Positions 6,001-62,645 of a stretch of 64,000 nucleotides of DNA are shown here, one piece after another. Positions within the stretch are counted from its first letter, which is position 1, and each line of letters opens with the position of its first letter. The notes below the pieces were generated by a model, which saw only the letters and a program-made list of their open reading frames with translations, did not search any database and was not told the origin of the DNA. Source of the DNA: a virus. A program made the translations under genes and the position numbers. The stretch lies in the UHGV virus genome UHGV-0023958; one strand, written 5' to 3'.

Positions 6001-7525
6001 TTTACAATCCATTAAAGATTCAATTGGAGATATCAATAAACAAAGAGAAAAAGAGCTTAATTTAATAAAGGCTCGCGATGCGCTTGAAAATGCGAAAAAA
6101 GAAAAGAAGCTTGTTTATCGTGCCGGTATTGGATTTGTTGCTACGTCAGACTCTTCTGCAATATAGGAGGCTCAAAAGAAAGTTGATGATTTGCAAAATC
6201 AACAAACTCAAGAAGATTTACAATATCAAATAGATTAGCTTAATCAACAAAAAGCAATATTAGAGGCGATTAAGAATGATCCCAATATGGAGAGCTTAAA
6301 AAATACTGCGGAAATTATAAAAGATGAATTGATGTAGAAAACGCCAGGTGGTATTCTTGGGCTATTAAAAAATTTAGATCCAGAAACTTTTTCTGATAAT
6401 GTTCGAGACGGCATTGTGAAAAGTATTACAGAAAAAACGCTAGCCGTTGGGCAAGATACATACAGAAACATAAAGTTTTCGTTAGACACTTTGTTATAGG
6501 ATTATAAAGATTTTTATGATACAAAAAATTATGAAGGAAGTGGACAATCTGTTCAATCTATTTTAGAAGATCCGTCAAATATTTATTTTTCTCGCGTTTC
6601 AAATTCAATAAAAGAAAAACAAAGTGCTATAGAAAGTAAGAAAAAAGAGCTAGATAATTTAAAAGAGAAGTATTTTTCTGGCGATAATAAATCGTTATTA
6701 GGAAGTTATGGCGGAGCAATTGAAAATATACAAAATTATTATAAAGAAAAATATGGAACAGATGATTATTAGGATGTGTCAAAGTTAAAATTTAACAAAG
6801 AGGGTATTTTGTTAGATTTAGAAAATGCTTCTGGTGATTATCATGAAAATTATTTTACAATGGTCAAATACACAAATGAGGCGGTATCCGATGATTCTTT
6901 TACCGATAATAAACATCGAAAATATAAAAAATCACCCGGTAAATCTTGGGAAAGCTTGGGTAAATCATGGAACGATATTGTAGAAAATGATTTGTTATAG
7001 CCGGGAGATTTCGTTTTAGTAGATTTAAAAGGAAATAAACTCGCCTATGTTGGTGTTGATAAAAAATTATATTGGGTACAAACTAAAAAGCCGAAAGATT
7101 AGAGTTATGGTGGTTATGGCGATGTTAATGACACAACAAAAGGAAATAACCCCGATATAGATTATTCTAATATGCGAGCCAAAGGTGATTATAATTATCA
7201 AGGTGGCAACGTTCTCATTAACGAACTTGGTACAGAAGCTATTGTAACACCACAGGGTACGCTTACATCACTTCCTTCTCATTCTGGTATTGTTCCTGCC
7301 GATCTCACAAAGAATTTGTTTGCTCTTGGCGAGATTGCTCCAAATCTTATTGCGACTCTTCGTAATCAGATGCCAAATGTTTCTAAATCGAATTCTACTA
7401 GCAATGATAATTCTACGAATATCGGAACTGTTTATGCAACATTTAATGCAGATAGCGGATTTGATATGAACAGATTTATGATCGACTTGCGCTCTGCCGC
7501 TGGCAACACAAGACACAACAACTAA
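2..7525 (+). CDS. Tail tape measure protein, 5' partial, read with about 30 in-frame TAG codons as sense; ends at TAA 7523-7525.
   Basis: Track ORFs 71-442, 686-1162, 2213-2443, 2474-2656, 2675-4000, 4712-5128, 5402-5683, 5981-6166, 6776-7000 and 7172-7525 are all in frame 2. Codon-by-codon walks of 3998-4712 and 5126-5402 found only TAG between them, no TAA or TGA. The 2675-4000 segment has a TP901-type core (GASVDEANSLMTSYNKLAKELG...LKGFNLQ). Confidence 0.75.
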
Positions 7526-13200: not shown

Positions 13201-14339
13201 TAACTTTTGATCAGAATAAAGGTATCGAATTTACGACGAGGGTTACAATAGACAGTTATCAATACTCGGCAGAATTTCTAAACGTTGTTATTAATACAGA
13301 TGGCGGAAACACAAAGAACTTGGTTTTGAAACCAGAAGATTTATATATAAGTTCTAATGATTGGCCAGAAGGTTATAAAGTTGGTTTCCCGAATTATGAG
13401 TGCTATAAGATTGGTAATTATGCTATCGGGGAAAATCCGAACGTATATGTTTATGGGAATGTAACAACCGATTTGTTCCCTAATTCTGATTCTTATAATT
13501 CTTGTATTAAATATAATAATTACTATATATCTTATATTCCTTCGAACGTAGTTCCCCTTGGAGCTAATAAACCTTCTATAAATATTCCAAATTCTTGGTA
13601 TTTTATCAATTATGATGAAGAAAATAGTGTTAAAGATATAATAAGTGATAAACCGATAAAGATAAATAAGATGATTTATGCTTTAGATGATCCCGATGGG
13701 CTATAGAACAAAGATGTATTTTATAATTTGCCAATATTTATAAGAAACGATTTATCTTTAAGCGGGAAAACAATAGAAAATTTACCTGATGGAACTAAGG
13801 TTTATAGTCTTTGGATGGATAAAAACGATGAGATAATTATACCAACAATAGTTGCTATAAATGAATCTGCTAATACTTTTTACTATTGTTATAGAAAAGT
13901 CAATAATCATCAAGAGGATATATCAGATAATATCTGGGAAGATACAAAAGAAAACGGAGAAGATAATATTTGGGAAGACGAAATTACAGTAGAAGATACT
14001 CAATCTGACCATTTAAAAAATAAAGATGGCTCGTTGAATACGATTAGAAATCGTTTGTATGGCAAAGTTTTATATTTTTATGTTCAGTGGAGCGGAAAAG
14101 AAAACGACGATATCACATACGGCATTGTTGGAAATGTATCACAAAGAGTAATAGATGTTGATTCTGAATTGTCGTTGACTTCTGTTAATCCAGTTGAGAA
14201 CAGGGTAATTACAACTGCTTTAAATTCAAAATTAGATACAACAACGTTATCTGATTAGAACACATTTGGTATATTTAAATGTTATACAGATAAATTTGGA
14301 ATATTAACTTTTGTTACTGGGGAGGGTGAAAATGGCTAA
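10203..14339 (+). CDS. Large tail / host-specificity protein of about 1378 codons with at least 8 in-frame TAG codons.
   Basis: ORFs 10203-10529, 10950-11339, 11802-12623, 12645-13706 and 13728-14258 are all in frame 0 with only TAG between them. The TAG at 14256 is followed in frame by TAA at 14337-14339, overlapping the next ATG as ATGGCTAA. Confidence 0.55.
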
Positions 14340-17210: not shown

Positions 17211-18902
17211 ATGAATAAGACAGAACAAGCAAATGGCTTTTTAAATATAATACGCTCCATTATCAAAGAGGAACAAGATAAGCGCGACAGGGTTGAAATT
17301 TGTCAAATTGATAGCGTAAATGAAGATGGGACAGTAAATATAAAAATGCTTTCAGATTTTGAAACTGTTAGAATAATTCCAAATATTTCAAATCAATCGA
17401 TATATAGTTTTAAAAATGGAGATTTGGCTATTATTTATATGATTCAAAATCAATTATCGAACGCGTTTATAATTGCTAAATGCGGTCCGACAAATGAAAG
17501 TTTAAGAATATCTTCGTCGGATGGTGATACAACTGGCGGAGGCACTGTTATACAAAATATAACATATCAAAGCGGAACTACTAGCGGCGTAACATCTGTC
17601 AATGGTAAAACGGGCGAGGTTACTATTACTGCATAGGATCTTGGAGCAATTACTGAAATTCCAGATGTAACACAAATACAATCAACAGATATTTCTTCGC
17701 TAGTTTATGATACAACAAATGGTGCCGCTTTTGAAATAAATAACAGTATTATCTTTTCAGATGGAACAAAAAATAACCCACTTTTAAAATTCAATTTGCC
17801 CATTATCGGCATCAATGGTATTAGTATAGATAAATCTAATGGTAAAAATGTTCTGGAAATTTCAGGAAAAGATTTGCAAGATTTAATTAATTCTATATCC
17901 TTGACTAGTGGTACGAATAATGGAACTTTAAAATTAACCGTTGGTACAACTATTGTTGATAATATTAAAGTTACGGGTTTTGATAAAAAGCAAGACCAGC
18001 TTAGCGAGAGCCAATTAAATGCTGTTAATTCTGGAATAACTTCAGAAAAAGTAACCACTTATGATGAATACCAGTCTTAGATTAATTCTAAATACACAAA
18101 ACCCGATGGCGGTATTCCGAAGTCAGATTTGTCTTCGGATGTTCAAAGTTCTTTGGTGAAAGCCGATTCTGCCTTACAAACCCATCAGAAAATTACAACT
18201 GGTAGTGCGAACGGAACGATTGCCGTTGATGGGACTGATGTTTCTGTTAAAGGATTAGGTTCTCTTGCGTACAAAAATTCTTTGACAAAAACAGATGTTG
18301 GACTTGGAAACGTTGATAATACATCGGATGAAGCCAAACCAATTTCTACCGCAACACAAACAGCCTTAGATGGGAAAGTAAATACTACAACAACGGTAAA
18401 CGGTCACGCGTTATCTTCTAATGTTACTATTACACAATCGGATGTCGGTTTGGGTAATGTTATTAACGCAGGGCAAGATCCAACACCAACATCCGATTCT
18501 ATAAATTATGTTACTTCTGGTGGTGTTAAAAGTTATGTTGACAACGGGTTAAACAAAAAAGCGGATTTACTAGTTAATGAATCAACGGTTACTACTGTAT
18601 AGTCTGGCCGCTTGTATGAGTTTACTGATATTCACAATCCATTTAGTTTATCTATCAATATGGATACATTTAAAACATCTAATGATGTTTCGCAGATTTA
18701 TTTCACGGCAGCAGCTAATTTTGATGTTGTCCTTAATGTTTCTTCTGGTGTTAGAATAATCGGAGATGGTGTTAATGCGAGTACCAAAAAAATTTCTTGT
18801 GTTAAAGGCAATTCGTATTATTTTACTTTTGGTTATACAAAAAAAGGTGTTTCTATTGTAAGTAATATTGATGCAAATTGGAGTGAGATAGCAACGGTAT
18901 AA
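17211..18902 (+). CDS. Tail fibre protein with GLGNVDNTSD-type fibre repeats and three in-frame TAG codons.
   Basis: ORFs 17211-17636, 17796-18080, 18129-18602 and 18612-18902 are all in frame 0. Repeats TDVGLGNVDNTSDEAKPIS and SDVGLGNVINAGQ. RBS aaggaggg. Confidence 0.6.
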
Positions 18903-19575: not shown

Positions 19576-19784
19576 TGAAAGTTGTTTTGTATACTGTGCA
19601 TTGTCCAAAATGTAAAATTTTAGAAAAGAAGTTAGAACAATCAAAAATCAAATATGATGTTTGTGAAGATTTGGATTTGATGTTGGCAAAGGGATTTCAA
19701 ACGGCTCCAGTTCTCGATGTTGACGGTAGAATTATGGAATTTAAGGAAGCCGTTCAATGGGTTAAAGAACAAATTGGGGGTTGA
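19575..19784 (+). CDS. nrdH: NrdH / glutaredoxin-like redoxin.
   Basis: CPKC active site in a 69-aa thioredoxin-fold-sized protein directly upstream of nrdD. Confidence 0.5.
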   Translation: MKVVLYTVHCPKCKILEKKLEQSKIKYDVCEDLDLMLAKGFQTAPVLDVDGRIMEFKEAVQWVKEQIGG

Positions 19785-21706
19785 TGCGTATGGAAATAAG
19801 TATTAAGCTTGATTCGGATTTCGAAGAACAAATTAAGTATTTAAAAAACAAATACGGAGATGAAATTACAAAAATCAATGGATTGTCAGATGGGCAATTA
19901 GATTATACTCACTTTATTGACAATTTTATTGATAGTGACAATGTTGCAAATGCCACAATTGATCCAAATGCAAATGCTGGCACTAAAGATGTCCGTGGTT
20001 TACTTGATGAAATGAATAAACCACATTCGAAATTGTTGAGTTTAAATAAAATATACTATGAGGTCAAGAAAAAATACGGAAAAGAATTAGCTAATAAATG
20101 GCTCGAAGATGAATGGTCTGGTGCTTTATATTTGCATGATGCCCCGTCATCATCTTTTTATTCTTATTGCTACGCTTATGAGTTACAGGGTTTGGCAGAA
20201 AAAGGTTTGTATTTTTTGCCAAAAAGTAACACCGAACCTCCGAAACATTTAACAACCTTTTTCGCTCATTTACGAGAATTTATTGTGTGGGTATCCAATA
20301 GAACCGCTGGTGCGTGTGCGCTTCCAAGCTTTTTCGTTTATTCCTGGTATTTTTGGAATAAAGATGTTCAATCTGGATATTATTTAAAAGATCCCGAATA
20401 TTATAGAAGACAGATGTTTCAGCAATTTATTTTTGAAGTAAATCAAATTCATACAAGAATTGTTCAAAGTGCTTATACGAATTTGATTATTATGGATAGA
20501 AATTATATTACTGAAATTTTTGGCGGAAGAGAATTTCCAGATGGAAGTTTAGTAATTGATCACGTTGAAGACATTATTGAACATCAAAAAGCGTTTATGG
20601 AAACCGAATGTGAAATTAGAAAACAGGTATTCCATACATTTCCAGTTTATACGTATTCCCTTCTTTATCAAAATGGAAAATTTGTAGATGAAGAATTTGC
20701 GCGTTGGTGTAATAAACAAAATCTCCAATGGTATGATAGTAATTTTTATGTTGGAGATAGCGTTACTAATCTTGCTTCGTGCTGTAGAATGTTAAACGAT
20801 TTGACAAAACAGAAACAATTCCAGTCAAGTATTGGCGGAAGTCTTGTTGAAATCGGCTCCGTCAAAGTAAGCACAATTAATCTTATGAGAATTGCCATTG
20901 AATCAAATGGTGATAAAGATAAGTTTATTGAAATTTTAACCGATAGGGTTAAAATGAATATGTTTGTTCTTGATAGAGTTCGTCATATTATTCAAAGGAA
21001 CATAGAAAAGGGGTTACTTCCAAATTATTCGTACGGTGTTATTAATTTGGAAAAACAAACCACGACTAATGGTTTAACTGCAATGTATGAAGCCATTGAA
21101 AAAATGGGAATGACAGAAACAGATGAATTTGGTTATGTAAAATATACCCAAGAAGGAATTGATTTTGCTAGTAAAATAATGGATACCGTAAATTATTTGC
21201 AAGATCATGCTGGTTTTGATTATAATGTTTCTCTCGAAATTATTCCAGCAGAATCTGCAAATGTGAAATTGTGTAAAAAAGATAATATTTTATATAATTT
21301 ACATGATAAATTTATTTATTCTAATCAATGGACGAGTTTAATGGCAAAATGTAGTATGAAAGAAAGAATTAAACTTTCGTCTCTTCTCGACAAAAAAGCT
21401 GGCGGTGGTCAAATACTTCACATTTCATTGGAGGGTGCAAGATTAACAGAAGAAGAGAGTTGGAATATGTTAAATTATATTGCTAAAAGTGGTGTAATTT
21501 ATTTTGCATTTAATCCAAAACTTTCCTTATGTGAAAAACAACATACTTTCTTTGGCGATGTTTGTCCTATTTGTGGAAGACCAAAGGTTGACGAAGCAAG
21601 TAGAATTGTTGGATATTTGGTTGCTACTTCTACGTATTCCAAAGATAGAAAAGAGGAATATGAGAATAGAAAATGGTATGCAATTGGCGATGACCAATAT
21701 TTATAA
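19784..21706 (+). CDS. nrdD: Anaerobic ribonucleoside-triphosphate reductase, class III.
   Basis: About 640 aa. C-terminal Zn ribbon CPICGRP and glycyl-radical-like SRIVGYL. Confidence 0.8.
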   Translation: MRMEISIKLDSDFEEQIKYLKNKYGDEITKINGLSDGQLDYTHFIDNFIDSDNVANATIDPNANAGTKDVRGLLDEMNKPHSKLLSLNKIYYEVKKKYGKELANKWLEDEWSGALYLHDAPSSSFYSYCYAYELQGLAEKGLYFLPKSNTEPPKHLTTFFAHLREFIVWVSNRTAGACALPSFFVYSWYFWNKDVQSGYYLKDPEYYRRQMFQQFIFEVNQIHTRIVQSAYTNLIIMDRNYITEIFGGREFPDGSLVIDHVEDIIEHQKAFMETECEIRKQVFHTFPVYTYSLLYQNGKFVDEEFARWCNKQNLQWYDSNFYVGDSVTNLASCCRMLNDLTKQKQFQSSIGGSLVEIGSVKVSTINLMRIAIESNGDKDKFIEILTDRVKMNMFVLDRVRHIIQRNIEKGLLPNYSYGVINLEKQTTTNGLTAMYEAIEKMGMTETDEFGYVKYTQEGIDFASKIMDTVNYLQDHAGFDYNVSLEIIPAESANVKLCKKDNILYNLHDKFIYSNQWTSLMAKCSMKERIKLSSLLDKKAGGGQILHISLEGARLTEEESWNMLNYIAKSGVIYFAFNPKLSLCEKQHTFFGDVCPICGRPKVDEASRIVGYLVATSTYSKDRKEEYENRKWYAIGDDQYL

Positions 21707-21711
21707 TAAAA

Positions 21712-22665
21712 ATGGACAACAGAAGATTATCAACTATTGAAAATGAAAGAGTAAAATTAGATTATAATATTGTTAAAAATAAAATGGTTGATTGCAAAAA
21801 TCAAAAAGATTTAGCAAAACAACTTGGTTGTGGTGTTAATAAATTAAGAGAATATTTGATTGAAAACGAATTATATGATGAATATTGTTCTATTCATAAT
21901 ATTCCAAATAAAGCAAGAAAAGAAATTGTTTGCTGTGTTTGTGGTGAAAAGAAATCTGTTTATTTATTGAACGAAAAACCATATTGTAAGAAACATTATA
22001 ATCAAATGTATCGATATGGCAAAATATATGAAAATACAATATATGATAAAAATGAATATATTTTTGAAGAAGATATTGTAAAAATCATATTAAAAGATAA
22101 ATATCAAAATTATAAAAGCGAATCAATCATAGACGTTTCCGATTATGAAAAGATTTGTAATTACAAGTGGTACGAATCTTATGGATATTGTGTAACGAAA
22201 AGTAATAATTGCGATGAAGGTATTGATATAGCAAATATTCTATTTGATAATTATGCAGATAGATTCGATCATCAAAATCATAACAAATTAGATAATCGTA
22301 GGTGCAATTTGCGACCAGTAACAGCACATCAAAATTCAATGAATATGGGCAAAAAATGCACGAATACTTCAGGAGTTACTGGTATACAAAGACAAAATAA
22401 AACAAGTGAAAAGTGGATTGCAACTATAGCTTATAACTATAAACCCATATGGCTTGGGGTTGATTATAGTTTCGACAGAATGGTAATCGAAAGATTAAAA
22501 GGGGAAGCAAAATATTTTAAAGAATTTTCTCCAAATTATAATTTAGAGAAAAAATTAATATGTTTAAATTATGTTTCCAGAGATGATAACTTGAATCATT
22601 ATATAGAAATGGATTTAAATGGAAATATTATAACAAATATTGTTGTTTCTAATGATTTAAAATGA
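21712..22665 (+). CDS. HNH homing endonuclease with an AP2 DNA-binding domain, inserted between nrdD and nrdG.
   Basis: HNH motif NRRCNLRPVTAHQNSMN and an AP2-like SGVTGIQRQNKTSEKWIATI; Cys-x2-Cys pairs. Confidence 0.6.
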   Translation: MDNRRLSTIENERVKLDYNIVKNKMVDCKNQKDLAKQLGCGVNKLREYLIENELYDEYCSIHNIPNKARKEIVCCVCGEKKSVYLLNEKPYCKKHYNQMYRYGKIYENTIYDKNEYIFEEDIVKIILKDKYQNYKSESIIDVSDYEKICNYKWYESYGYCVTKSNNCDEGIDIANILFDNYADRFDHQNHNKLDNRRCNLRPVTAHQNSMNMGKKCTNTSGVTGIQRQNKTSEKWIATIAYNYKPIWLGVDYSFDRMVIERLKGEAKYFKEFSPNYNLEKKLICLNYVSRDDNLNHYIEMDLNGNIITNIVVSNDLK

Positions 22666-23138
22666 AAATCAAACAATTAATATATGAAGATTTTGTCAAT
22701 TATAAAAAACCATCATTGTTCTTGGGAACTACCGCCTGTAGCTTTAAATGTGAGAAAGAGGCTAATTGCATTGGAATGTGTCAAAATTCAGATCTTGTTA
22801 AAAGCAAAACAATTGAAATTGATAATAAGATTCTAATCGATAGATATTTAAATAACGGTATTACGGAAGCCGTTGTTATTGGTGGATTAGAACCACTTGA
22901 TACATTTGAAGATACTTTGCAATTCATTAAAGACTTTAGAGAAAAATCGGATGACGATATTGTTATATATACAGGTTTTAATGAAGACGAAATTGAAGAT
23001 AAAATAGTTATTTTAAAAAAGTTTAAAAATATTATAGTGAAGTTCGGGCGCTATCGTCCGAACTTCCAAAAGCATTTTGATGAAGTGCTTGGAGTGGAAT
23101 TGGCTTCTCCAAATCAATATGCTAAGAGAATGAGTTAA
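22662..23138 (+). CDS. nrdG: Anaerobic RNR activating protein-like; the Cys cluster CSFKCEKEANCIGMC is atypical.
   Basis: Size and position downstream of nrdD; N-terminal Cys cluster. Confidence 0.4.
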   Translation: MKIKQLIYEDFVNYKKPSLFLGTTACSFKCEKEANCIGMCQNSDLVKSKTIEIDNKILIDRYLNNGITEAVVIGGLEPLDTFEDTLQFIKDFREKSDDDIVIYTGFNEDEIEDKIVILKKFKNIIVKFGRYRPNFQKHFDEVLGVELASPNQYAKRMS

Positions 23139-23159
23139 TTTTAAACAAGGAGGTTGTTT

Positions 23160-24365
23160 ATGGAAAACGTATTGATTGAATTTAAAAATAAAGCTAAAAA
23201 GCAAAACATTATTAAGGCAGGGTTGTGTTCTGTAGCAATCTCCTTGTTATTTAATATTCCGTTTTTGATAGCTTTTTGGATTATGGATTATAAATATAAA
23301 TTTATAATTTGCGCTGGAATTTTTATTGTCGGAATCTCCGTTTTGTTTCCAGTTTTATATTTCAAAAAGTTTAAATATACCGAAATTCAATTAGCAAAAA
23401 TAATTGACGATCTTGGTTTAGAAGAACGTGTTTTGACAATGATTGAATTAAAAGATAATAATTCTTTTATTGCAAAGAAGCAAAAAGAAGATACGTTGAA
23501 CGTCCTGAAAACCGTAGAGGCGAATGATTTAAAAGGAAAATATAAAAAACAATCATTTCTTTCGATATTTTCAACTGCATTGGCATCTTTGGTAATTGCT
23601 TTATCTTTAATGTTTCCAAATATTAGAGAAACTATTATCGCTCGCGGAGAACCAAAATATACAATTGAAGTGTCTGCAGAAGGTCTCGGTTTTGTGATTG
23701 ATTATTCTAAATATGAAAATCAATCTTTGATAAATGCCGTTTCTAAAAAACAAGAACAAGATGAAATCAATAAAATTAACAATAAAGAAATAGTTGAATT
23801 AAAACAATTCCCGACTGTATTTTCAAATAGAATTTCCGTAAATTATAGATGTTTCGAAGATATTGATGCAACTATGGTTTTAGACGGTGCCAACTTTGCA
23901 GATGTTTCTTATAGAATACAATCCGATGAAACACATATTTTAATGGCACTTCCTTATAAAGGATATGTGTTTGTTGGTTGGTCAGACGGTTGTGCTTCTC
24001 CGTTCAGAGAAATTGACAATTATTCCACCGACTTGATTGCATTGTTCGATGAAGTAAGTTCCGTAGGTGAAGACTTACCAGATAAACAAAAAGAACCGGG
24101 AGACAAAGATGGATCTGATGGTGGTGAGTCTGATGGAATTGGACCCGAAGGAAATGGAACCGGTAAAACAAACAATGATAATAGTTGGGGCGATGGAGCG
24201 AAAGGTTCGCCAGCAAATCAAGTAATTAACGGTGAAACTTATTATGGTGATATTTTTAATCAAAGCTATCAAGAGGCTGTTGAAAGAATAAAGAATGATA
24301 CAAATTTAACAGATGCACAAAAGAAAGCTATAACTGATTACTTTGAATCAATAAGAAAAAATTAA
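23160..24365 (+). CDS. Membrane protein with two or three N-terminal TM helices and a Gly/Asp-rich C-terminal region.
   Basis: RBS aaggagg then ATG 23160; hydrophobic segments. Confidence 0.4.
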   Translation: MENVLIEFKNKAKKQNIIKAGLCSVAISLLFNIPFLIAFWIMDYKYKFIICAGIFIVGISVLFPVLYFKKFKYTEIQLAKIIDDLGLEERVLTMIELKDNNSFIAKKQKEDTLNVLKTVEANDLKGKYKKQSFLSIFSTALASLVIALSLMFPNIRETIIARGEPKYTIEVSAEGLGFVIDYSKYENQSLINAVSKKQEQDEINKINNKEIVELKQFPTVFSNRISVNYRCFEDIDATMVLDGANFADVSYRIQSDETHILMALPYKGYVFVGWSDGCASPFREIDNYSTDLIALFDEVSSVGEDLPDKQKEPGDKDGSDGGESDGIGPEGNGTGKTNNDNSWGDGAKGSPANQVINGETYYGDIFNQSYQEAVERIKNDTNLTDAQKKAITDYFESIRKN

Positions 24366-24378: not shown

Positions 24379-25188
24379 ATGATACCTAATAAAACAAAAG
24401 CATCTGAATATAGGGTGCGGACATTAGATAGAAATGATTTAAATGAGAAAGGAACGATTTATATTGGTTAGGGCGGTACTTCTACTATTGATAAAGTTGA
24501 AAATATTTCCAATGTAGCGGCAATTAGTAAGCCAGATGATGATTTAAACAAATCTGGTTATTATGCTTTAACGCTTGGAGGAAATGCAAATCAAGATGGA
24601 ATTTGGGGCAGATTTTTACATGAGGTAGATTGCCAAATAACACCAACTTTATTTCAATTAAACGAAGGAGCGCCATCTCTTCATAATCCTTATAAATATG
24701 TAATTCGCGGTGGGTATAAGTCGTTAAATATTAAAAAAAGTATATTTGATTCAACACTTACATATATAATGGATTATAATTCAAATTTATCATCTTTTTC
24801 TTCTGTTGATTAGAAAATATTTGCAAAATTATCTATGAGGGGATTTGTAGAATATGATACTCCGTTTGAAGTATATTCTTCTTTTGTTGCCTCTCAGAAG
24901 ACTGGAAGTTCTTGGGAGTTATATCCTTTGAATTTTTCACCGATTAATATTACAAAATTAAACGATAATTATATGCGAAATTTCCAAAGCATTGTTTTTT
25001 GTTCAAATGATACACCGTGGCAAGAAACTGCGGATGGTTTTCAATTAAACCTTCATGCAATCGGTATGGGAAATACATTAGAAGAGCAAAAATTATATTA
25101 TTAGAAAAATGGCACTGGTGAAATTCTAACTGCTAATCTATCAAATATTTCATAGATTAGAGTAACTCAAATGTCTATTATTTTTTAA
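24379..25188 (+). CDS. Hypothetical protein needing TAG decoding (four in-frame TAG codons), sitting inside the otherwise standard-code early region.
   Basis: RBS aaaggag then ATG 24379. Frame 1 is open through TAGs at 24469, 24811, 25102 and 25153 to TAA at 25186-25188, and contains track ORF 24835-25104. Confidence 0.5.
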
Positions 25189-26748: not shown

Positions 26749-26823
26749 TGGGGAATAGCATAACGGTAGTGCGGTGCTCTCTAAAAGCACTCTGTGTCGG
26801 TTCGAGCCCGACTTCCCCCGCCA
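26749..26823 (+). tRNA. Amber suppressor tRNA, anticodon CUA, with Gln-like features U1, G10 and G73.
   Basis: Cloverleaf: acceptor tggggaa/ttccccc; D-stem gcat/gtgc; anticodon stem gtgct/agcac with loop cTCTAaa; T-arm gtcgg-ttcgagc-ccgac; encoded CCA. Confidence 0.75.
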
Positions 26824-46056: not shown

Positions 46057-46143
46057 GCGCAGGTATTCCGTTAAGGAGACGGGACGGACTGTAAATCCGT
46101 TGCCGTAAGGCTCTAGTGGGTTCGATTCCCTCACTGCGCACCA
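46057..46143 (+). tRNA. tRNA-Tyr (GTA), type II with a long variable arm.
   Basis: Acceptor gcgcagg/actgcgc; anticodon stem acgga/tccgt with loop cTGTAaa; variable stem gcc-gtaa-ggc; T-loop ttcgatt; CCA. Confidence 0.55.
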
Positions 46144-46822
46144 ATATGGTCGGATGGTGTAATCTGGTAGCACATCAGCCTTTGCGGTTGGGGGCACACG
46201 TTCAAATCGTGCATGGCCTACATTTGTTCGCTATCTACAGGCGGCTAATAAATAGAGTAAAGTGGGTATTGAGGAAAGTTGCGAATAGTGTAGAAAATAA
46301 GCAATTTACTGCAAACTATGTCCTCATAAAATGGTCTGTGATATTCCAGTGGCTGCGCAAAATATCAAATCATCTCAATGTAGAATTTGGCAATTGTTGC
46401 AACGATTTGTCAAAAGAGACTCAAGTGAAAGCAGAAATCCCTCAAAATTAAATCTACGAGGAATATGATCACCTTGGGCGCGAAATCCTGCGTAAATGTA
46501 GCAAGGGCAGGTAAAAAAGAGTCGAAGAGATGAGAGAGCGTTTCGCTGCTTTAATGCGAGATGTATAAGTTCTGTATTGTCGAGAGTCCTGCGAGAGTGG
46601 AAACAATTAGTATTTTATGTTTATTTGATTTATTTATTTTTTTTTAGATTATTATTCATTTTTTACTGATTACTATTACCTATACCCACAATACAGAAAA
46701 ACTCTATAATTGCACAGCGGATTATAGATAAGGCTGCCGTAGCATGTAACGGAAATCAATGCAGTTACGTAAAGGACTGACAGATTACTGAGAATCAGAA
46801 AATCTCAAAGCTGTATAAATAT

Positions 46823-46899
46823 TGCTTCTTAGCTCAGCTGGTTAGAGCGCGTGACTGTTAATCACGATGTCCAGAGTTCGAATCTCTGAGAAGCAGCCA
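46823..46899 (+). tRNA. tRNA-Asn (GTT).
   Basis: Canonical cloverleaf tgcttct-ta-gctc-agctggtta-gagc-g-cgtga-cTGTTaa-tcacg...cagag-ttcgaat-ctctg-agaagca-g-cca. Confidence 0.85.
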
Positions 46900-47363
46900 T
46901 TAAATTGAATAGCATGTAATGGGAACATATCCGGAGTAGAATACATCTGATTAAAATAACAAAATCTTCGTTAGTTAGCCTCCCCGACGTCTGCTGATAT
47001 GGCTGATGGAGTCCTTGCTATTCTTGATAATTGAGGAGTGATAAACCTGACAAAGTTGAAATGATATATACGATGTCCGTACTGAAACGTATCAGACAAA
47101 TATCAAGACGTTATAGCTCTACCGACACGTCAGATCGGGTAATGGGTAATAAGAGCTTACTTATAGTATCTTAGAGTAATTTAGTACCTTAAATGAAATA
47201 AGTAAATGTAATTCAATTTAAAAGTATTTCTTTGATTTAAGGGTTAGGTAGGAGTGGCTACGCAGACCAACTCAAGAGTGTCTTGGCGTAAAGTAGATGA
47301 AAAGAAAGAAATTGGTTGAATTAAATTTAATGATTAACCAAAGTCCATTGGTTATAAATACGT

Positions 47364-47437
47364 GCGATATTAGTGTAGTGGTAACACAATTGATTTCCAA
47401 TCAATTATCATCAGTTCAAATCTGATATATTGCTCCA
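47364..47437 (+). tRNA. tRNA-Gly (TCC).
   Basis: gcgatat-ta-gtgt-agtggta-acac-a-attga-ttTCCaa-tcaat-tatc-atcag-ttcaaat-ctgat-atattgc-t-cca. Confidence 0.8.
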
Positions 47438-47550
47438 GCACCCTACGGTAGGTATACATACGCGTAGTCCGAAGTCATTGGCGGATAGAGTAAGTAGAAG
47501 CTATAGATTCTAAGCACCAGCATCGCTCTCGACACTAACGGATGCTACCC

Positions 47551-47627
47551 GGAAGTTTAGTTCAGTTGGTTAGAACGCTACCTTGACATGGTAGAGGTCA
47601 TAGGTTCAAGTCCTATAATTTCCACCA
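47551..47627 (+). tRNA. tRNA-Val (GAC).
   Basis: ggaagtt-ta-gttc-agttggtta-gaac-g-ctacc-ttGACat-ggtag-aggtc-atagg-ttcaagt-cctat-aatttcc-a-cca. Confidence 0.8.
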
Positions 47628-50816: not shown

Positions 50817-51162
50817 GTGTTTGCTGACAAAAGAAGAATTTTGCAAATACATTAATTTTATCAAAGCTCGTATTGAAGCAGAAGATAAGATCAATGATTT
50901 GTTCACCGAAGAGTTTACCGATAGCATTTTTATGCCTTATGGAAAATGTATTGATAAAATTGTCAGTTTATTATCGAAAATAATGCGTTGTAACGCCATA
51001 GACACGTGGGGAACGACCGATATCGACTATTTCATCTACGAGCTTGACTTCGGCAAGAAATGGCCAGGATACAGTGCTTACGATGAACATGGTGCGCCGA
51101 TTCCAATGAGGACACCAGAAGAACTTTATGACTATTTGATTAAAGAAAACTTTGAGGATTGA
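50800..51162 (+). CDS. Hypothetical protein.
   Basis: ORF track. Confidence 0.4.
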   Translation: MPKKSECLLTKEEFCKYINFIKARIEAEDKINDLFTEEFTDSIFMPYGKCIDKIVSLLSKIMRCNAIDTWGTTDIDYFIYELDFGKKWPGYSAYDEHGAPIPMRTPEELYDYLIKENFED

Positions 51163-51163
51163 T

Positions 51164-52348
51164 ATGAAATTACAACTATTAGATTTTATTAAACAGAACA
51201 AAGAGAACTGGAAAGATGTTTTGCAGAAGCCACCTTATTCTCTTATTGTAAAAGAAGACGATGATTATATTTTGTTAAAATATAATCAGTTGGAATCTGA
51301 TTTATCAAATTCAATTGTTCAGGAATGCCGTGGAATAATTTTACGTAAATCAGATTTAAAGGTTGTTTGCTTTCCTTTTACAAAATTCTTCAATTATCAC
51401 GAACCGAACGCTGCTAATATAGATTGGGATGGTGCACGCGTTCTTGATAAGATCGACGGGAGTTTGATGAAGCTTTGGTTTGACAATGGGTATTGGCATT
51501 GGTCCACAAACGGAAATATCGATGCTGATAAAACAGAATTCGCAGTAAACGACTTATCGCAGATGTATTGTCCTTGTAAAACTTTTGGAGAATTAATTCG
51601 TACGGCTGTAAATTATAAAGATTTAGATTTTAATAATCTAAATAAAAATTTTACGTATATGTTCGAACTGGTATCTCCGTATACTAAAATTGTAATTCCG
51701 TATTCGGAAACAAAACTTTATCATCTGGCCACTCGTGATAACACTACGTTTGAAGAACTCGAAACGGACATCATTGTTGAGAAACCGAAATCTTATGATA
51801 TTTCGACCGTTGATGATTGTGTGCTTGCTGCCGAAAAACTTTCTTCCGATTATGAAGGTTTTGTTGTTGTAGATAAGAATTATCATCGTATTAAAATCAA
51901 AAACCCAAAATATCTTATGATGCACAGAATGGCAAGTAATAATTCTTTGAGTATCAAAAATATTCTTGAGATGATTAAAATTAATGAATGTAGTGAATTT
52001 CTTTCTTACTTTCCAGAATATACGAACGCATTTAAAATTGTAGATCAAATTCTTAAAAAGTATTATTTTGAAATGAGCAAAGAATACTACGAGTTTAAAG
52101 AACAATCTGTGTTTTTATCACGGAGAAAAATTGCAGAAAAGATAAATAGTAATGCTAAATGGAAAGATTATCTTTTTGGAGCAATATATAAAAACAAAAC
52201 AGATGAAGAAAAGTATTTGTTCGAAATGAAGGGCGATAGACTTTTAAACCTTGTTCGCGAAGATTATAAAAAAATGATGGAGAAAAAAGATGCGGATACC
52301 TATTTTATACATAATGTGTGGACTGCCAGCGTCGGGGAAAACAACTAA
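51164..52348 (+). CDS. RNA ligase, T4 Rnl1-like.
   Basis: Nucleotidyltransferase motif I KIDGSL, resembling T4 Rnl1 KEDGSL. Confidence 0.55.
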   Translation: MKLQLLDFIKQNKENWKDVLQKPPYSLIVKEDDDYILLKYNQLESDLSNSIVQECRGIILRKSDLKVVCFPFTKFFNYHEPNAANIDWDGARVLDKIDGSLMKLWFDNGYWHWSTNGNIDADKTEFAVNDLSQMYCPCKTFGELIRTAVNYKDLDFNNLNKNFTYMFELVSPYTKIVIPYSETKLYHLATRDNTTFEELETDIIVEKPKSYDISTVDDCVLAAEKLSSDYEGFVVVDKNYHRIKIKNPKYLMMHRMASNNSLSIKNILEMIKINECSEFLSYFPEYTNAFKIVDQILKKYYFEMSKEYYEFKEQSVFLSRRKIAEKINSNAKWKDYLFGAIYKNKTDEEKYLFEMKGDRLLNLVREDYKKMMEKKDADTYFIHNVWTASVGENN

Positions 52349-53279
52349 GGCTAAAGAAATTGTTGCAGAAGAAGGTGCGGAATACGTATCGTCTGATGAA
52401 ATCAGAAAAGAATTATATGGCGATGAAAGTTGTCAGTCCGATAATCAAAAAGTATTTGAACATTATTACAAAAGAATGAATCAATATCTTTCCGAAGGAA
52501 AAGATGTTGTTATTGATTCAACAAATGTTACTTTGAAATCGAGAAAAAGAATTCTTTCAGAATGTAAAGTAGATTGTATAAAATTGGTTTATATAATCAA
52601 CACACCTATTGAAATTTGCTATGAAAATGATTTAAAAAGAGAAAGACATGTCGGAAAAGAAGTTATTGATAAATTCTGGAAGAATTTTCAGTGTCCGCAA
52701 AGTTTTGAAGGTTTTGATTCAATAGTGATAATTCAAAATAATCATGAAAAAAATTTTGACAAAGATTTTTTTGAAGAAACTATTAAAAAAATGAATGATT
52801 TTGATCAAAAAAATCCACATCATAAATTTACTTTGGGAGAACACTGCCTGATAACGAAAAAATTATTAGAAAAGATGATAAATAACACAGACAGTTTTTA
52901 TGAAAAAAGATTGTTTTTTACGGAAAAAGTTAAAAAAAGTGTTTGTTATGCTGCTCTGATTCATGATGTCGGTAAAATGTTTTTTCAATCTTTTGATAAA
53001 GATGGTGTTGCCCATTATTATAATCATGCAAACATTGGAACATATTATCTTGTTTCGCACATGAGTGAATTTTTAGATTCGATTGACAAGGATTGTTTTC
53101 AATATGTTTCATATATTTTATTTTTAGTAAATTATCACATGCTTGCACACGAAATTCATACCGAGAAAGCTATAAATAAATATAAAAATCTTTTTGGCGA
53201 AGATTTGTTTAATTTATTAATGAAGTTTCAAAAGTGTGATAGTTTGGCTTCTGGAACGGCTGGAGAAATTGATTTATGA
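52290..53279 (+). CDS. Polynucleotide kinase (P-loop GLPASGKTT) fused to an HD phosphohydrolase domain.
   Basis: Walker A at the N-terminus; LIHDVGK HD motif. Confidence 0.55.
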   Translation: MRIPILYIMCGLPASGKTTKAKEIVAEEGAEYVSSDEIRKELYGDESCQSDNQKVFEHYYKRMNQYLSEGKDVVIDSTNVTLKSRKRILSECKVDCIKLVYIINTPIEICYENDLKRERHVGKEVIDKFWKNFQCPQSFEGFDSIVIIQNNHEKNFDKDFFEETIKKMNDFDQKNPHHKFTLGEHCLITKKLLEKMINNTDSFYEKRLFFTEKVKKSVCYAALIHDVGKMFFQSFDKDGVAHYYNHANIGTYYLVSHMSEFLDSIDKDCFQYVSYILFLVNYHMLAHEIHTEKAINKYKNLFGEDLFNLLMKFQKCDSLASGTAGEIDL

Positions 53280-58170: not shown

Positions 58171-58877
58171 ATAGATATTTTGATTATGAATTTGATGGAG
58201 ATACTGAATCTCAAGCAGACGAAATTGTGCACGAAGCAAAAGATAAGCTCGTAGATTTGATTTATGAAAATGTAAAATCAGAAATTGAAGAAGATAAAAA
58301 AAATTATGTAAGGGCCAAAGAAAGAGCCGATGAGCTGCAGAAAGAGTGTTATGAAAAAAGAGAAAAAATCAATGCTCTTGAAATTGAATTAAAGAAAGTA
58401 AAAGAAGAGCTTGAAAGAAGTGATAAGTTAATTCCCAAAACACCTTTTGCACTTGGTGATGAGGTTTGGATTCCTTATAGAAAGTATAGTGATAAAGGTG
58501 AGGTGAAATGCCCTATGTGTAATGGCGAAGGGTATATTACCACACCAACCTATATTTATGGAACGCTTAAATGTATCTGCCCACATTGTAATAATGAGTG
58601 GGGAAAAACAAAAGCGGAATATGATAAATACTCCGTGGAGCGTAGATATATTAAATCAATTAATATTTTTACAGATAAAGCAAAAGAGACCAGATTTGAC
58701 TACGGAACCATCGAAGATAAAAAGAATCTTGATGTCAAAGACTATCATTATGTAACTACCGTAACACATGTTTATGCAACAAGAGAAGAGGCGTTGGCGA
58801 AAGCGCAGGAGTGGGAAAACGAAAGCAAAAAGAAAGCAGAAGAAAAGATTTTTGGAGAAAATAAGTCAACTACCTAA
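58161..58877 (+). CDS. Coiled-coil / zinc-ribbon protein with CPMCNGEG and CPHCNNE.
   Basis: ORF track. Confidence 0.4.
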   Translation: MELNRYFDYEFDGDTESQADEIVHEAKDKLVDLIYENVKSEIEEDKKNYVRAKERADELQKECYEKREKINALEIELKKVKEELERSDKLIPKTPFALGDEVWIPYRKYSDKGEVKCPMCNGEGYITTPTYIYGTLKCICPHCNNEWGKTKAEYDKYSVERRYIKSINIFTDKAKETRFDYGTIEDKKNLDVKDYHYVTTVTHVYATREEALAKAQEWENESKKKAEEKIFGENKSTT

Positions 58878-59099
58878 TCCCTGAGTGGATGTGGGCTTTG
58901 TTCCCATTAGTTGATCAGACTAAGCGTTAAGCTACGTTATCAAAGAATATACAGGCACCGTAGGATGTATTCTCCAGTCTTACGCTCTGCGGTATGTGAT
59001 TAAACAGTTCTGATGGGTAGGAACAGTGTTGCATACGAAAACCTTTGAATAACATTGTCGTGGAGTAACCACTCTAACATATAGGAGGCTATAAAAGCA
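58878..59099 (+). ncRNA. Candidate omega-RNA scaffold for the downstream IscB.
   Basis: About 220 nt with no ORF and higher GC than flanks, immediately 5' of iscB; several local stems such as cgtagga...tcttacg. Confidence 0.4.
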
Positions 59100-60329
59100 A
59101 TGGTATATGTATTAAATAAACAAGGTGAGCCAATAATGCCTTGTAAAGAAGCAAAAGCAAGGAAATTGTTAAAACAAAACAAAGCAAAAATAGCAAAGTA
59201 TGAGCTATTTACAATTCAATTACTATTCGATTGTGAAAATCAAACGCAAGAAGTAAATCTCGGAATTGATGCAGGGAGCAAACATATAGGTGTTTCTGCA
59301 ACCACAGAAAAACAAGTTTTATACGAAGCTAATGTTGAGTTGAGAAATGATATTGTTGACAAATTATCTTCTCGTCGTGAAGCTCGCAGGACTCGTAGGA
59401 ATAGATTGAGATATAGACCTGCAAGGTTTAATAATAGAATTAAATCAAAACATAAAGGCTGGTTAGCACCAAGTGTTGAACAAAAGATAAATACGCATAT
59501 TCAAGTTATAAAACACTTATACGAGATTTTACCGATAACAAAACTTGTTATTGAAACTGCTCAATTTGATATTCAAAAAATCAACAATCCTGAAATATCT
59601 GGAGCAGAATATCAACAAGGTGAGCAATTAGGATTTTGGAATGTAAGAGAATATGTTTTATTTCGCGATAATCACGAATGTCAATATTGTCACGGGAAGT
59701 CAAAAGATGTTGTATTAAATGTGCACCATATTAAAAGTCGAAAAATAGGCGGCAATGCACCAAATAACTTGATCACTTTATGTGAAACTTGCCATAAAGC
59801 TTATCATAGTGGCGAAATTAAACTAAATCTCAAACGTGGTAAGAGCTATCGAGATGCAACATTTATGTGGGTTATGCGTAAAACATTATTGAATAGGTTG
59901 CGTAAATTATATACAAATGTTTACGAAACGTATGGTTATATAACTAAAAATGCTCGTAGCGAGAATAATTTACCAAAAGAACATTACATAGATGCTCGGT
60001 GTATAAGCGGCAATTCAAAAGCAAAACCGTTAGATTATTACATTTATCAGAAATGTGTTAGAAAACAGAACAGGCAAATTCATAAAAACAATTTCTTAAA
60101 AGGTAGATACAAAAAGAATAACCAACTAAATGGAAATGTTTTTGGATTTGAATTATTCGATACTGTAAAATATAAGAATAAACAATATTTTGTTTTTGGT
60201 AAACGCAAGTCTGGGTTTTTAGATGTAAGAAATCTAGACGGCGAAAAGGTAAACAATGGTTCAATAAGTTATAAAAAACTTAAAAGAATTAGATATAATT
60301 CAACAAAATTAACGGAAAGGAGGCGGTAA
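59100..60329 (+). CDS. iscB: IscB-like RNA-guided nuclease, OMEGA class, with PLMP, RuvC-I, arginine-rich bridge helix, RuvC-II, HNH and RuvC-III.
   Basis: GEPIMPC...FTIQLLFD (PLMP); LGIDAGSKHIGVS; RREARRTRRNRLRYRPARF; LVIETAQFD; CQYCHG...NVHHIKSR...CETCHKAYH; EHYIDA. RBS aggagg. Confidence 0.75.
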   Translation: MVYVLNKQGEPIMPCKEAKARKLLKQNKAKIAKYELFTIQLLFDCENQTQEVNLGIDAGSKHIGVSATTEKQVLYEANVELRNDIVDKLSSRREARRTRRNRLRYRPARFNNRIKSKHKGWLAPSVEQKINTHIQVIKHLYEILPITKLVIETAQFDIQKINNPEISGAEYQQGEQLGFWNVREYVLFRDNHECQYCHGKSKDVVLNVHHIKSRKIGGNAPNNLITLCETCHKAYHSGEIKLNLKRGKSYRDATFMWVMRKTLLNRLRKLYTNVYETYGYITKNARSENNLPKEHYIDARCISGNSKAKPLDYYIYQKCVRKQNRQIHKNNFLKGRYKKNNQLNGNVFGFELFDTVKYKNKQYFVFGKRKSGFLDVRNLDGEKVNNGSISYKKLKRIRYNSTKLTERRR

Positions 60330-60649: not shown

Positions 60650-60664
60650 TTTAAAAAAATTTCA

Positions 60665-60712
60665 AAAAGTCAGCTAATTTTAGTTGACTTTTTCTTCTTT
60701 TTATTATATAAT
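60665..60712 (+). promoter_or_regulatory. Hairpin aaaagtcagcta / tagttgactttt plus a T-tract. The -35 TTGACT is in the 3' arm, with TTGACT-N17-TATAAT.
   Basis: Seen in the sequence; one G-U pair. Confidence 0.5.
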
Positions 60713-60748
60713 ATACATGTAAAAAATCAATGAGAGGTGTATAGTAAA

Positions 60749-61114
60749 ATGGAAAAAGAGTTTAAGCTTGAATTAAAGAAGAAACAGAACTATAATAACA
60801 TGTTTTACAGATACAGTTATGAAACCTGTAAAATTTGGTTTAGTCAAGAACAAACAACTGGAAATATTTATAGAATAAATATTGTAGATGAACAATATCC
60901 AGAGGTAGATTACTATGTAGATGATACAGAAGATAGATTTTACCCTTTACAAATTAGATTAGATTTTCCACGACTGTTTATTAAAAATGATTCTAATTTT
61001 GAATCTGCTAAGAAAAAATTACAGGATTGTTGTTTAAGAAGACATGCTATTGAAGACTTTCTACTTTCTAGTGAGCACTACAAACTTTGGTTAGAAAAAC
61101 ACGGAGAAATTTAA
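60749..61114 (+). CDS. Hypothetical protein.
   Basis: RBS gagaggtg. Confidence 0.4.
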   Translation: MEKEFKLELKKKQNYNNMFYRYSYETCKIWFSQEQTTGNIYRINIVDEQYPEVDYYVDDTEDRFYPLQIRLDFPRLFIKNDSNFESAKKKLQDCCLRRHAIEDFLLSSEHYKLWLEKHGEI

Positions 61115-61116
61115 TT

Positions 61117-61899
61117 ATGGGAAAAACTAATAAAATGCCTGGACTTGGCGATAGAATGAAAGATTATGAAAATGTAAATAGGTTTTATTTAACAAGAAGA
61201 ATGCCATTAATTATAAGAATTGACGGCCGTGCTTTTCATACTTTTTGTAGAGGATTTAAGAAGCCTTACGATAGAATATTTGCAGAATCAATGCAAGCTA
61301 CCGCGCTTAATTTATGTAAAAATATTGAAGGTTGCAAATTAGCTTACACTCAATCTGATGAAATTTCTTTACTTCTTACCGATTATGATGAATTAAATAC
61401 GCAGGCTTGGTTTGATAAAAATTTGCAAAAAATAGTTAGTATTAGTGCGTCTCTTGCAACTCTTTATTTTAACACATCATTTAAAGATTTATCTGAAAAA
61501 TGGTTTGAAAGATATTATGAAGCTTGGAACTATACGGAAGAAGATAGCAAATATTATTGGACTTTAGGAAGAGCAGAATTTACTGCAACATTTGATTCAA
61601 GAGCTTTTTGTTTACCCAAAGAAGAGGTTGCAAATTACTATATTTGGCGACAGAAAGATGCAACCAGAAATTCTATAAATTCTCTTGCTCAAGCTAATTT
61701 TTCTCACAAATCGCTTCAAGGATTAAATGTAAATCAGGTACAAGACAAACTTGTAAATGAAAAAGGAATTAATTGGAACGATCAATTGACTGAGTTTAAA
61801 AGAGGAATTTGCTGTGTAAAAACAGAAGAAGGTTGGAAAATAGATAAAGAAATTCCCGTATTTACTGAAGATAGAAATTACATTGAGAGGTTTATTTAA
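61117..61899 (+). CDS. Thg1-like 3'-5' nucleotidyltransferase, tRNA-His guanylyltransferase family.
   Basis: MKDYENVNRFYLTRRMPLIIRIDGRAFHTF at the N-terminus; ANYYIWRQKDATRNSINSLAQ. Confidence 0.55.
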   Translation: MGKTNKMPGLGDRMKDYENVNRFYLTRRMPLIIRIDGRAFHTFCRGFKKPYDRIFAESMQATALNLCKNIEGCKLAYTQSDEISLLLTDYDELNTQAWFDKNLQKIVSISASLATLYFNTSFKDLSEKWFERYYEAWNYTEEDSKYYWTLGRAEFTATFDSRAFCLPKEEVANYYIWRQKDATRNSINSLAQANFSHKSLQGLNVNQVQDKLVNEKGINWNDQLTEFKRGICCVKTEEGWKIDKEIPVFTEDRNYIERFI

Positions 61900-61901
61900 T
61901 T

Positions 61902-62291
61902 ATGAAAATTTATGAATATCTTAATAGATTACGTAGAGAAGAGCGTACGATTTATCTTGGTGAAACAGATCAAGAAATTGAACTTGATATACTTTTAAAA
62001 ATTGATCATAAATATTACCGTTGTTGTAAACAGGATTTAAAAAAAGACATTTTATATGTTGAATTTGTAGATTATTACCTTCCAAGAATGGATGACGATT
62101 ATTGCGACGATAATTTAAGATGTCCTTTTTGCGGATATGAGGAAAAGGATTCTTTTGAACTTTCGGATGAGGACGATGAGTATATTTGCCCTCAATGCGG
62201 TAGCACACTAAAATATCATAGGGAGATCAAAATATCTTATGATGTTGAAGTTGTTGAAGAAAAAGAGCCTTTGGAGGTAAAATTCAAATAA
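61902..62291 (+). CDS. Zinc-ribbon protein with CPFCG ... CPQCG.
   Basis: ORF track. Confidence 0.4.
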   Translation: MKIYEYLNRLRREERTIYLGETDQEIELDILLKIDHKYYRCCKQDLKKDILYVEFVDYYLPRMDDDYCDDNLRCPFCGYEEKDSFELSDEDDEYICPQCGSTLKYHREIKISYDVEVVEEKEPLEVKFK

Positions 62292-62452
62292 TGACTAACT
62301 TTGAAAAAATAAAGAATATGAGCATGAAAAAGTTAGCAGACTATCTTGCGGGATTGGTAGACTGTTATGGTTGTCGTATCAATTGTTGTAAAAAGACCTG
62401 TAAATGCGCGTGGATAGAATGGCTAAAAAGCGAGGCGGAAAACAATGGCTAA
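62291..62452 (+). CDS. Small Cys-rich protein of 53 aa.
   Basis: ATG overlapping the upstream stop as ATGA; not in the track. Confidence 0.25.
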   Translation: MTNFEKIKNMSMKKLADYLAGLVDCYGCRINCCKKTCKCAWIEWLKSEAENNG

Positions 62453-62645
62453 AATTTTGGATCATTGTGTAATTTATACTGCAGACGATGAAGAACCTGA
62501 TTGCTTGATGTGTGATCACTGTCAAAGTAGCGACCTTTGTAGCGAATGTGGACCTGAACATTGGTGGCACTATTATGAGAGAGAAGAACAAAAATCTGAA
62601 ATGAATAGATTGGTTAGAGCTTTAGAGAGATTAGGTTTAAAATGA
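62445..62645 (+). CDS. Small Cys-rich protein.
   Basis: ORF track. Confidence 0.35.
   Translation: MAKILDHCVIYTADDEEPDCLMCDHCQSSDLCSECGPEHWWHYYEREEQKSEMNRLVRALERLGLK

Follow-up and report, generated by a model that had tools for sequence, protein, structure and literature searches.

The stretch of DNA analysed here, 64,000 nucleotides (nt) of the UHGV virus genome UHGV-0023958 (hereafter the window), encodes a genuine Thg1-like protein (TLP) in the open reading frame (ORF) 61117..61899. By its residues the protein looks catalytically competent, and it seems rather likely that it belongs to the RNA (tRNA) repair toolkit of a phage, rebuilding tRNA acceptor ends that have been truncated at their 5' side. 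A preliminary description, made from the letters of the DNA alone, had placed a Thg1-like protein here and quoted the motif LIIRIDGRAFHTF (aa 31-43), and both the coordinates and the motif proved exact. The gene and the parts of it that carry the argument, compared with the TLP of Bacillus thuringiensis (BtTLP), are the following:

61117..61899, + strand: TLP gene, 260 amino acids (aa), ATG to TAA; supported by the ORF and its sequence, Pfam, PHROG, PDB and AlphaFold2/Foldseek
61207..61245, + strand: the LIIRIDGRAFHTF motif with R34, the metal-binding D36 and H41, matching R28, D30 and H35 of BtTLP
61354..61362, + strand: S80-D81-E82 (tct gat gaa), the activation-step serine with the second and third catalytic carboxylates, equal to S74, D75 and E76 of BtTLP
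61486..61581, + strand: insertion of about 32 aa compared to BtTLP (aa 124-155), modelled as a helical hairpin and seen as a gap in the PDB alignment
61660..61680, + strand: TRNSINS (aa 182-188) at the site of the HINNLYN motif of eukaryotic Thg1, located by alignment to Candida Thg1

Profiles, solved structures and a structure model all confirmed the family. The Pfam Thg1 hidden Markov model (PF04446), proposed from the start as a check, gave a decisive match of 114.6 bits where the gathering threshold is 29.2 (E=3.9e-33); the match runs through aa 12-167 and takes in positions 2-130 of the 130 in the profile. The condition that would have refuted the preliminary description, a lack of any significant match to the Thg1 family, was thus clearly contradicted, and the scores with Pfam, PHROG and PDB exceed by far what chance would give. 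PHROG 4717, 'tRNA-His guanylyltransferase', covered the whole TLP (E=3.7e-86), and no NCBIfam model matched it. The score with the Pfam Thg1C model (PF14413) was 17.1 bits against a cut-off of 26.3, and the C-terminal half of the protein aligned with BtTLP residues 125-237 at 118 bits. BtTLP (4kgk) is the best solved relative (E=2.3e-73, in two blocks that include both domains), followed among the PDB matches by an archaeal TLP (5axk) and then by Candida, human and yeast Thg1. The AlphaFold2 model, built with 30 homologues, had a predicted local distance difference test score (pLDDT) of 87 and a predicted template modelling score (pTM) of 0.85. All 32 PDB matches that Foldseek returned for it with E<=0.001 were Thg1 or TLP structures, the top one being BtTLP 4kgm_B (template modelling scores, TM, 0.78/0.88). 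The whole model superposes on 4kgm, and the identity in the Foldseek alignments with the 4kgk/4kgm chains was 42-50%.

The active site is kept in full. In BtTLP the conserved carboxylates are D30, D75 and E76, the D75A mutant is inactive, and E12, R28, H35 and S74 have nucleotide-contacting or stabilising roles (PMC3701042). The BtTLP residues E12, R28, D30, H35, S74, D75 and E76 correspond to E18, R34, D36, H41, S80, D81 and E82 in the window, and the counterparts of the carboxylates in hTHG1 are D29, D76 and E77. Conservation was followed in an alignment of 18 sequences, which takes in BtTLP and two GenBank phage TLPs, and in a set of 30 metagenomic homologues. E18, R34, D36, S80, D81, E82, K105, R162 and N185 were invariant in both, and H41 was invariant in the first and at least 90% conserved in the second; K105, R162 and N185 align with further Thg1 catalytic positions. 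The carboxylates, which the preliminary description had wished to see verified, are thus present as the invariant D36, D81 and E82. Because the essential residues of BtTLP and Thg1 are all retained, the window TLP looks active.

The TLP of the window and BtTLP align over their full length, share the catalytic residues and both lack HINNLYN. They differ in that the window TLP has the hairpin insertion at aa 124-155 and a shorter C-terminal hairpin, and in that it belongs to a phage of a Clostridia-like lineage while BtTLP is encoded on a Bacillus chromosome. In the AlphaFold2 model the insertion extends the helix 103-135 and adds a second helix (141-153), both predicted with confidence. It is common to most of the metagenomic relatives and to the TLP of Fusobacterium phage Fnu1, and it is lacking in BtTLP and in Bacillus phage Eldridge. 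BtTLP is 74-76% identical to the TLPs of the virulent Bacillus cereus-group myophages Hobo (MH638309), BM15 (KT995480) and Bc431v3 (JX094431), which makes the enzyme used as biochemical reference closely related to phage TLPs and raises the possibility that it may itself be of phage origin.

The eukaryotic Thg1 enzymes (human 3otb, Candida 3wbz, yeast 5xox) have the fold and the two-metal active site in common with the window TLP at 20-24% identity. They differ from it in adding a non-templated G-1 to tRNA-His, the GUG anticodon of which is read via HINNLYN. This motif is eukaryote-specific, and its histidine stacks on the anticodon base G36 (PMC6471195). In the alignment to Candida Thg1, WRQKDATRNSINS of the window stands opposite WRQVDCHINNLYN, with Thr at the position of the histidine. 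Because HINNLYN is absent and the similarity to BtTLP is much stronger than that to the eukaryotic structures (E=2.3e-73 versus about 1e-9 to 1e-11), the window protein is, as judged from its sequence, a member of the TLP clade, that is, of the template-dependent 5'-end repair type and not a tRNA-His G-1 enzyme. In the published enzymology, BtTLP favours N+1 addition to 5'-truncated tRNAs 5-160-fold over -1 addition, and the preference for 5'-truncated tRNA with Watson-Crick templating is described for both BtTLP and MaTLP. By homology, we infer that the window TLP would likewise prefer 5'-truncated tRNA and Watson-Crick templating.

By analogy with the characterised enzymes, the TLP would adenylylate or guanylylate the 5'-monophosphate of an RNA (with ATP or GTP), or take a 5'-triphosphate as it is. 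The 3' strand of the stem at the acceptor end would serve as a Watson-Crick template, and the 3'-OH of a nucleoside triphosphate paired to it would attack the activated end. Pyrophosphate would leave, and the cycle would be repeated, one nucleotide each time, until the helix is complete. Two further proteins encoded in the window could take part in such repair:

51152..52348, + strand: RNA ligase of the T4 Rnl1 family (PF09511, 64.7 bits against 28.3; phrog_562, E=3e-49)
52290..53279, + strand: polynucleotide-kinase-like P-loop kinase with a C-terminal HD-type domain (AAA_33, 77 bits; phrog_505)

It had been claimed that the Thg1-like protein complements a pair of ligase and polynucleotide kinase (PNK), and the pair does exist. 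The ligase reached 79.8 bits with TIGR02308, under the equivalog cut-off of 242. The kinase matched the bacterial Pnkp kinase region (E=6e-14); its HD domain is a weak match (20.4 bits against a cut-off of 22) and not a HAD phosphatase. In a joint scheme, the kinase-HD protein would turn nuclease-made 5'-OH ends into 5'-phosphates and heal 3' ends, the Rnl1 ligase would seal breaks in anticodon loops, and the rebuilding of 5'-truncated acceptor ends would fall to the TLP, with the outcome that host and phage tRNAs would stay usable during infection. We infer here the substrate, the joint action of the enzymes and any connection with host defence. The arrangement is reminiscent of the tRNA repair of phage T4, in which Pnkp and Rnl1 counter the anticodon nuclease PrrC, as the window likewise has an Rnl1-family ligase and a kinase-like protein on the same strand. 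It differs from T4, which has no TLP, in the TLP 8 kb from the ligase and kinase, and in a healing domain that is HD-type (by the weak match above) instead of the HAD-type phosphatase of T4 Pnkp. In T4 the trigger is PrrC; for the system of the window no triggering host nuclease is known.

The repair reading finds its support in the genes that surround TLPs in other phages, since these neighbours are repair genes, which is an association only. We surveyed 87 TLP loci, of which 80 came from IMG/VR, 5 were metagenomic contigs and 2 were from GenBank phages; most of them included flanks of 10 kb on both sides. ORFs from all these loci and from the region of the window were called and clustered. 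De-replication at 85% TLP identity left 51 lineages, Pfam supplied names for the neighbour clusters that recurred most, and P values for distance were calculated on the assumption of a uniform spread. The families that recurred within 10 kb were as follows:

Metallophos phosphoesterase: 23 of 51 lineages, closer than 2 kb in 14 of 23 (P=2e-5)
PF09414 RNA ligase: 18 of 51 lineages, closer than 2 kb in 7 of 18 (P=0.051)
RlaP repair nucleotidyltransferase: 17 of 51 lineages, closer than 2 kb in 6 of 17 (P=0.11)
PNK-like kinase: 9 of 51 lineages (25 of 87 loci by tblastn), closer than 2 kb in 2 of 9 (P=0.56)
CCA-adding enzyme: 7 of 51 lineages, closer than 2 kb in 2 of 7 (P=0.42)
MazF-like toxin: 9 of 51 lineages, closer than 2 kb in 0 of 9 (P=1)
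NAD-dependent DNA ligase: 7 of 51 lineages, closer than 2 kb in 0 of 7 (P=1)

Enzymes that heal, restore and seal RNA ends thus strikingly dominate the recurrent neighbours. At least one of Metallophos, RNA ligase, RlaP, PNK-like kinase and CCA-adding enzyme lies within 10 kb of the TLP in 37 of 51 lineages, and the four repair families other than Metallophos, when pooled, give a count of 17 of 51 within 2 kb (P=0.018).

The calcineurin-like Metallophos gene adjoins the TLP gene in many lineages (for example, L002 9506..9988 and L005 10800..11579). In L002, a relative with 80% identity, it lies 13 nt upstream of the TLP gene, and in the window the gene is absent; Metallophos and TLP may form a two-gene module. 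The MazF/PemK-like endoribonuclease toxin gene lies 3-9 kb from the TLP in its nine viral lineages (for example, L022 17260..17646), no closer than chance. The upstream arrangement of the closest relatives, L001 and L008 (TLP 86-87% identical), differs from that of the window: a gene of the TnpB/IS605 OrfB type and 9-10 clustered tRNA genes (L001 1..811 and 961..3505; L008 782..3248) occupy the segment 7-9 kb upstream in which the window carries its ligase and kinase.

Several observations weigh against the TLP being part of a repair toolkit. When the families were tested singly, Metallophos alone was significantly near the TLP, and the figure of 37 of 51 has no matched control of random phage regions and hence no proper null. 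In the window, the ligase and kinase lie 8 kb upstream of the TLP on the same strand and are not adjacent to it, and the TLP is probably in a transcription unit apart from theirs. Metallophos, RlaP and CCA-adding genes were sought in the window and none was detected, the only match being between the HD region of CCA-adding enzymes and that of the kinase. Literature searches yielded no experimental work on any phage TLP. The loss of the 5' acceptor strand is also the sole damage that a template-dependent TLP can mend, and in the literature searched no tRNA-targeting defence nuclease is known to cut there: the defence tRNases described act on anticodon loops or stems, on D-loops, on the CCA tail (Cas12a3) or, in the case of retron Eco2, on the 3' acceptor strand. 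The role proposed in the preliminary description, 5'-end tRNA repair that complements the ligase and kinase, remains the most likely one, by association with the neighbourhood. The further suggestion that it mends tRNAs clipped by defence nucleases meets the difficulty that none of these is known to clip the 5' acceptor strand.

A more far-reaching version would be that phage TLPs, often with an adjacent Metallophos gene and a kinase, form a counter-defence module which rebuilds the 5' acceptor strand once a host nuclease, as yet undescribed, has attacked it. We put this forward tentatively and consider it doubtful. If true, prokaryotic 3'-5' polymerisation would gain its first biological role, and a new class of tRNA-targeting immunity would be implied.

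Among the other explanations, the one that survives best is that the TLP serves maturation or quality control of the tRNAs of the phage itself, either by 5' repair after imprecise RNase P cuts in packed clusters or by 5' editing in the style of mitochondria. In the window 6 tRNAs were predicted, and its tRNA cluster is the following:

46057..47627, + strand: phage tRNA cluster (Tyr, weak Gln, Asn, Gly, Val; ARAGORN and Rfam), candidate substrates or context, with positions 1-3 all paired

Phages with a TLP are indeed rich in tRNAs (in 21 of the 87 related loci, tRNAs lie within 10 kb), the tRNA-Tyr of the window lies 4 nt from the next predicted tRNA, and a tRNA with a CUA anticodon has a U1.C72 mismatch that could be edited. 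The enzyme DdiTLP3 carries out such editing in Dictyostelium mitochondria, and this editing, known also from Acanthamoeba, is likewise a templated 3'-5' repair that acts on 5'-truncated tRNAs whatever their identity. What it mends, however, are genome-encoded mismatches in pairs 1-3, and these are essentially lacking in the phage tRNAs: of the 95 tRNAs that were predicted for the window and the 87 loci together, only 3 had a mismatch in acceptor pairs 1-3, always at 1:72, which means that there are no systematic 5' acceptor mismatches, and on this count we rejected the editing. An open 1:72 pair is normal in initiator and Gln-type tRNAs according to the rules of tRNA identity. The two other suppressor tRNAs near TLPs (L060, L086) have a paired 1:72, and the recurrent neighbours of the TLP are end-healing and sealing enzymes, not tRNA-processing ones. 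Taken together, a role in tRNA maturation appears unlikely.

Some features of the tRNA cluster are unusual in themselves. The spacers between the tRNAs in 46057..47627 are long (about 110-600 nt), relatively G+C-rich and non-coding, and a low-threshold Rfam search of them returned nothing convincing. The tRNA-Gln(UUG) that ARAGORN placed at 46148..46219, 4 nt past tRNA-Tyr, is weak (24 Rfam bits, below gathering), with a 4-bp T stem, two acceptor mismatches and no encoded CCA.

The homologues in GenBank phages carry the name tRNA-His guanylyltransferase, and it could be thought that the TLP adds a C73-templated G-1 to the tRNA-His of phage or host and so secures histidine charging during infection. 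According to the original report, BtTLP does add a templated N-1 to tRNA-His and weakly complements the yeast thg1 deletion (PMC3061083). However, TRNSINS stands in place of HINNLYN, and no tRNA-His was found in the window or among the 95 tRNAs of the 87 TLP loci and the window; for these two reasons the role was rejected. The literature adds that most bacteria encode G-1 in the gene, which makes the reaction unneeded, and the preference of BtTLP for truncated tRNAs over -1 addition points the same way. We therefore regard this role as very improbable.

Least probable of all is a substrate other than tRNA (5' ends of phage transcripts, rRNA, the omega RNA of IscB or a cap-like 5' modification): TLPs have broader RNA recognition than Thg1, Thg1-like proteins are mentioned in a review of non-canonical RNA capping, and a locus of IscB and HEARO RNA lies 0.8 kb upstream of the TLP, but direct evidence is lacking, the characterised prokaryotic TLPs all act on tRNA-like acceptor helices, and IscB is near just one other TLP locus (L006), an adjacency that is not conserved and for which we rejected IscB and the HEARO RNA as functional partners of the TLP.

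The novelty implied by the preliminary description did not stand, as TLPs have been annotated in phages since 2013 and are already counted among phage RNA-repair genes. The TLP gene of Bacillus phage Bc431v3 was highlighted in that year, and Iyer et al. (2021) included Thg1 in their list of RNA-repair enzymes from jumbo phages. We found TLP homologues in 164 GenBank phage records, mostly of large tRNA-rich phages (carriers infect Bacillus, Prevotella, Caulobacter, Mycobacterium, Fusobacterium and others), and in IMG/VR at least 580 stretches encode a relative; more than 7,900 protein clusters match the TLP. The annotated 'tRNA-His guanylyltransferases' of the phages Bc431v3, Eldridge, Fnu1 and Xanthomonas phage XacN1 belong to PHROG 4717 like the window TLP, with 46-54% identity, and that of Fnu1 also has its insertion. 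The cultured phages differ from the window in that none is close at the DNA level, protein identity does not exceed 54%, and the immediate neighbours of the TLP vary between lineages. The repertoire described by Iyer et al. (2021) includes RlaP, CCA-adding enzyme and Thg1, and in the loci surveyed here genes for ligase, kinase, RlaP, CCA-adding enzyme and Metallophos lie no more than 10 kb from the TLP. Both the presence of TLPs in phages and the idea of repair are thus known already, and the survey of neighbourhoods reinforces a published hypothesis. The window adds one phage lineage to the carriers of TLP and leaves the knowledge of the family unchanged. The enzymology of BtTLP is well worked out, and the repair-gene neighbourhoods, especially those with Metallophos, hint at where to seek the damage that is repaired.

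The borders of the gene were read from the sequence around it, in which the following features stand out:

60684..60712, + strand: promoter-like TTGACT-17-TATAAT (11/12), tentative, from a consensus scan, overlapping a terminator-like hairpin at 60664-60693
60737..61114, + strand: upstream ORF of 125 aa without a family match, the stop of which (61112-61114) lies 2 nt before the TLP start
61103..61106, + strand: GGAG, a putative Shine-Dalgarno sequence read in the sequence 10 nt 5' of the ATG
61902..62291, + strand: Zn-ribbon ORF of 129 aa (CPFCG...CPQCG), starting 2 nt past the TLP stop

The TLP ORF is intact from the ATG at 61117 to the TAA stop at 61897-61899 on the + strand. A TTG at 61087 would give a longer protein; the ATG is favoured because the close relatives are about 260 aa long and start with MGKTNK. 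In about 35 metagenomic relatives of 76-98% identity the length is 254-264 aa, and those that were aligned start with MGKTNK or MAKTNG. The terminator-like hairpin and the promoter-like site suggest, weakly, that the ORF at 60737, the TLP, the Zn-ribbon ORF and small ORFs make up a separate transcription unit starting before the first of these; in the consensus scan the number of promoter-like sites in the TLP region was not above chance. A homologue of the upstream ORF, 60% identical, precedes the TLP also in L002. The presence of the Zn-ribbon ORF directly 3' of the TLP is restricted to the closest clade (L001, L002 and L008, 67-68% identity), where the whole block is syntenic, which is uninformative, and we did not retain it as a conserved partner of the TLP.

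That the gene is borne by a phage, as had been described, was borne out by the contents of the window, which has 33% G+C and nearly all genes on the + strand. It encodes a tape measure protein (phrog_4211, E=4e-58), tail proteins, a DnaE-type polymerase, DnaB, NrdD, PhoH and an ExoV-like helicase, along with tRNA genes, and this confirms a tailed phage. The polymerase is closest, at 43% identity, to those of large Clostridium and Clostridioides phages, and a near-identity DNA search of 55000-64000 found no match among GenBank phages. The window is from an uncultured, apparently amber-recoded phage that probably infects Clostridia.

In the structural genes, the amber codon seems to have been reassigned. 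The segments concerned are 71..7525, 10203..14339, 17211..18902 and 24379..25188 on the + strand, and reading TAG as sense gives a tape measure ORF of 2484 aa (32 in-frame TAG) and a tail protein ORF of 1378 aa (8 TAG). There are no in-frame TAG codons in the genes of the TLP region. The tRNA with the CUA anticodon, at 26749..26823, has besides U1.C72 the pairs G2-C71 and G3-C70, G73 and an encoded CCA, and by these features resembles a Gln-type suppressor.

Two loci with endonuclease genes were also seen. The nrdD region (19781..24365, + strand) encodes an NrdD of 641 aa in which the PHROG profile is matched in two stretches, with an HNH endonuclease ORF (21712..22665) directly 3' of it, an arrangement that could reflect either the insertion of a homing endonuclease or a split nrdD. 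Upstream of the TLP, a HEARO RNA (Rfam RF02033, 121.7 bits, E=1.2e-24) at 58865..59072 on the + strand is followed on the same strand by a protein of 409 aa at 59100..60329, which matches the NCBIfam model 'RNA-guided endonuclease IscB' with 369.6 bits against a cut-off of 175 and contains the Pfam domains RRXRR and HNH; the segment 58865..60329 is thus a locus of IscB with its omega RNA (OMEGA), carried by a phage.

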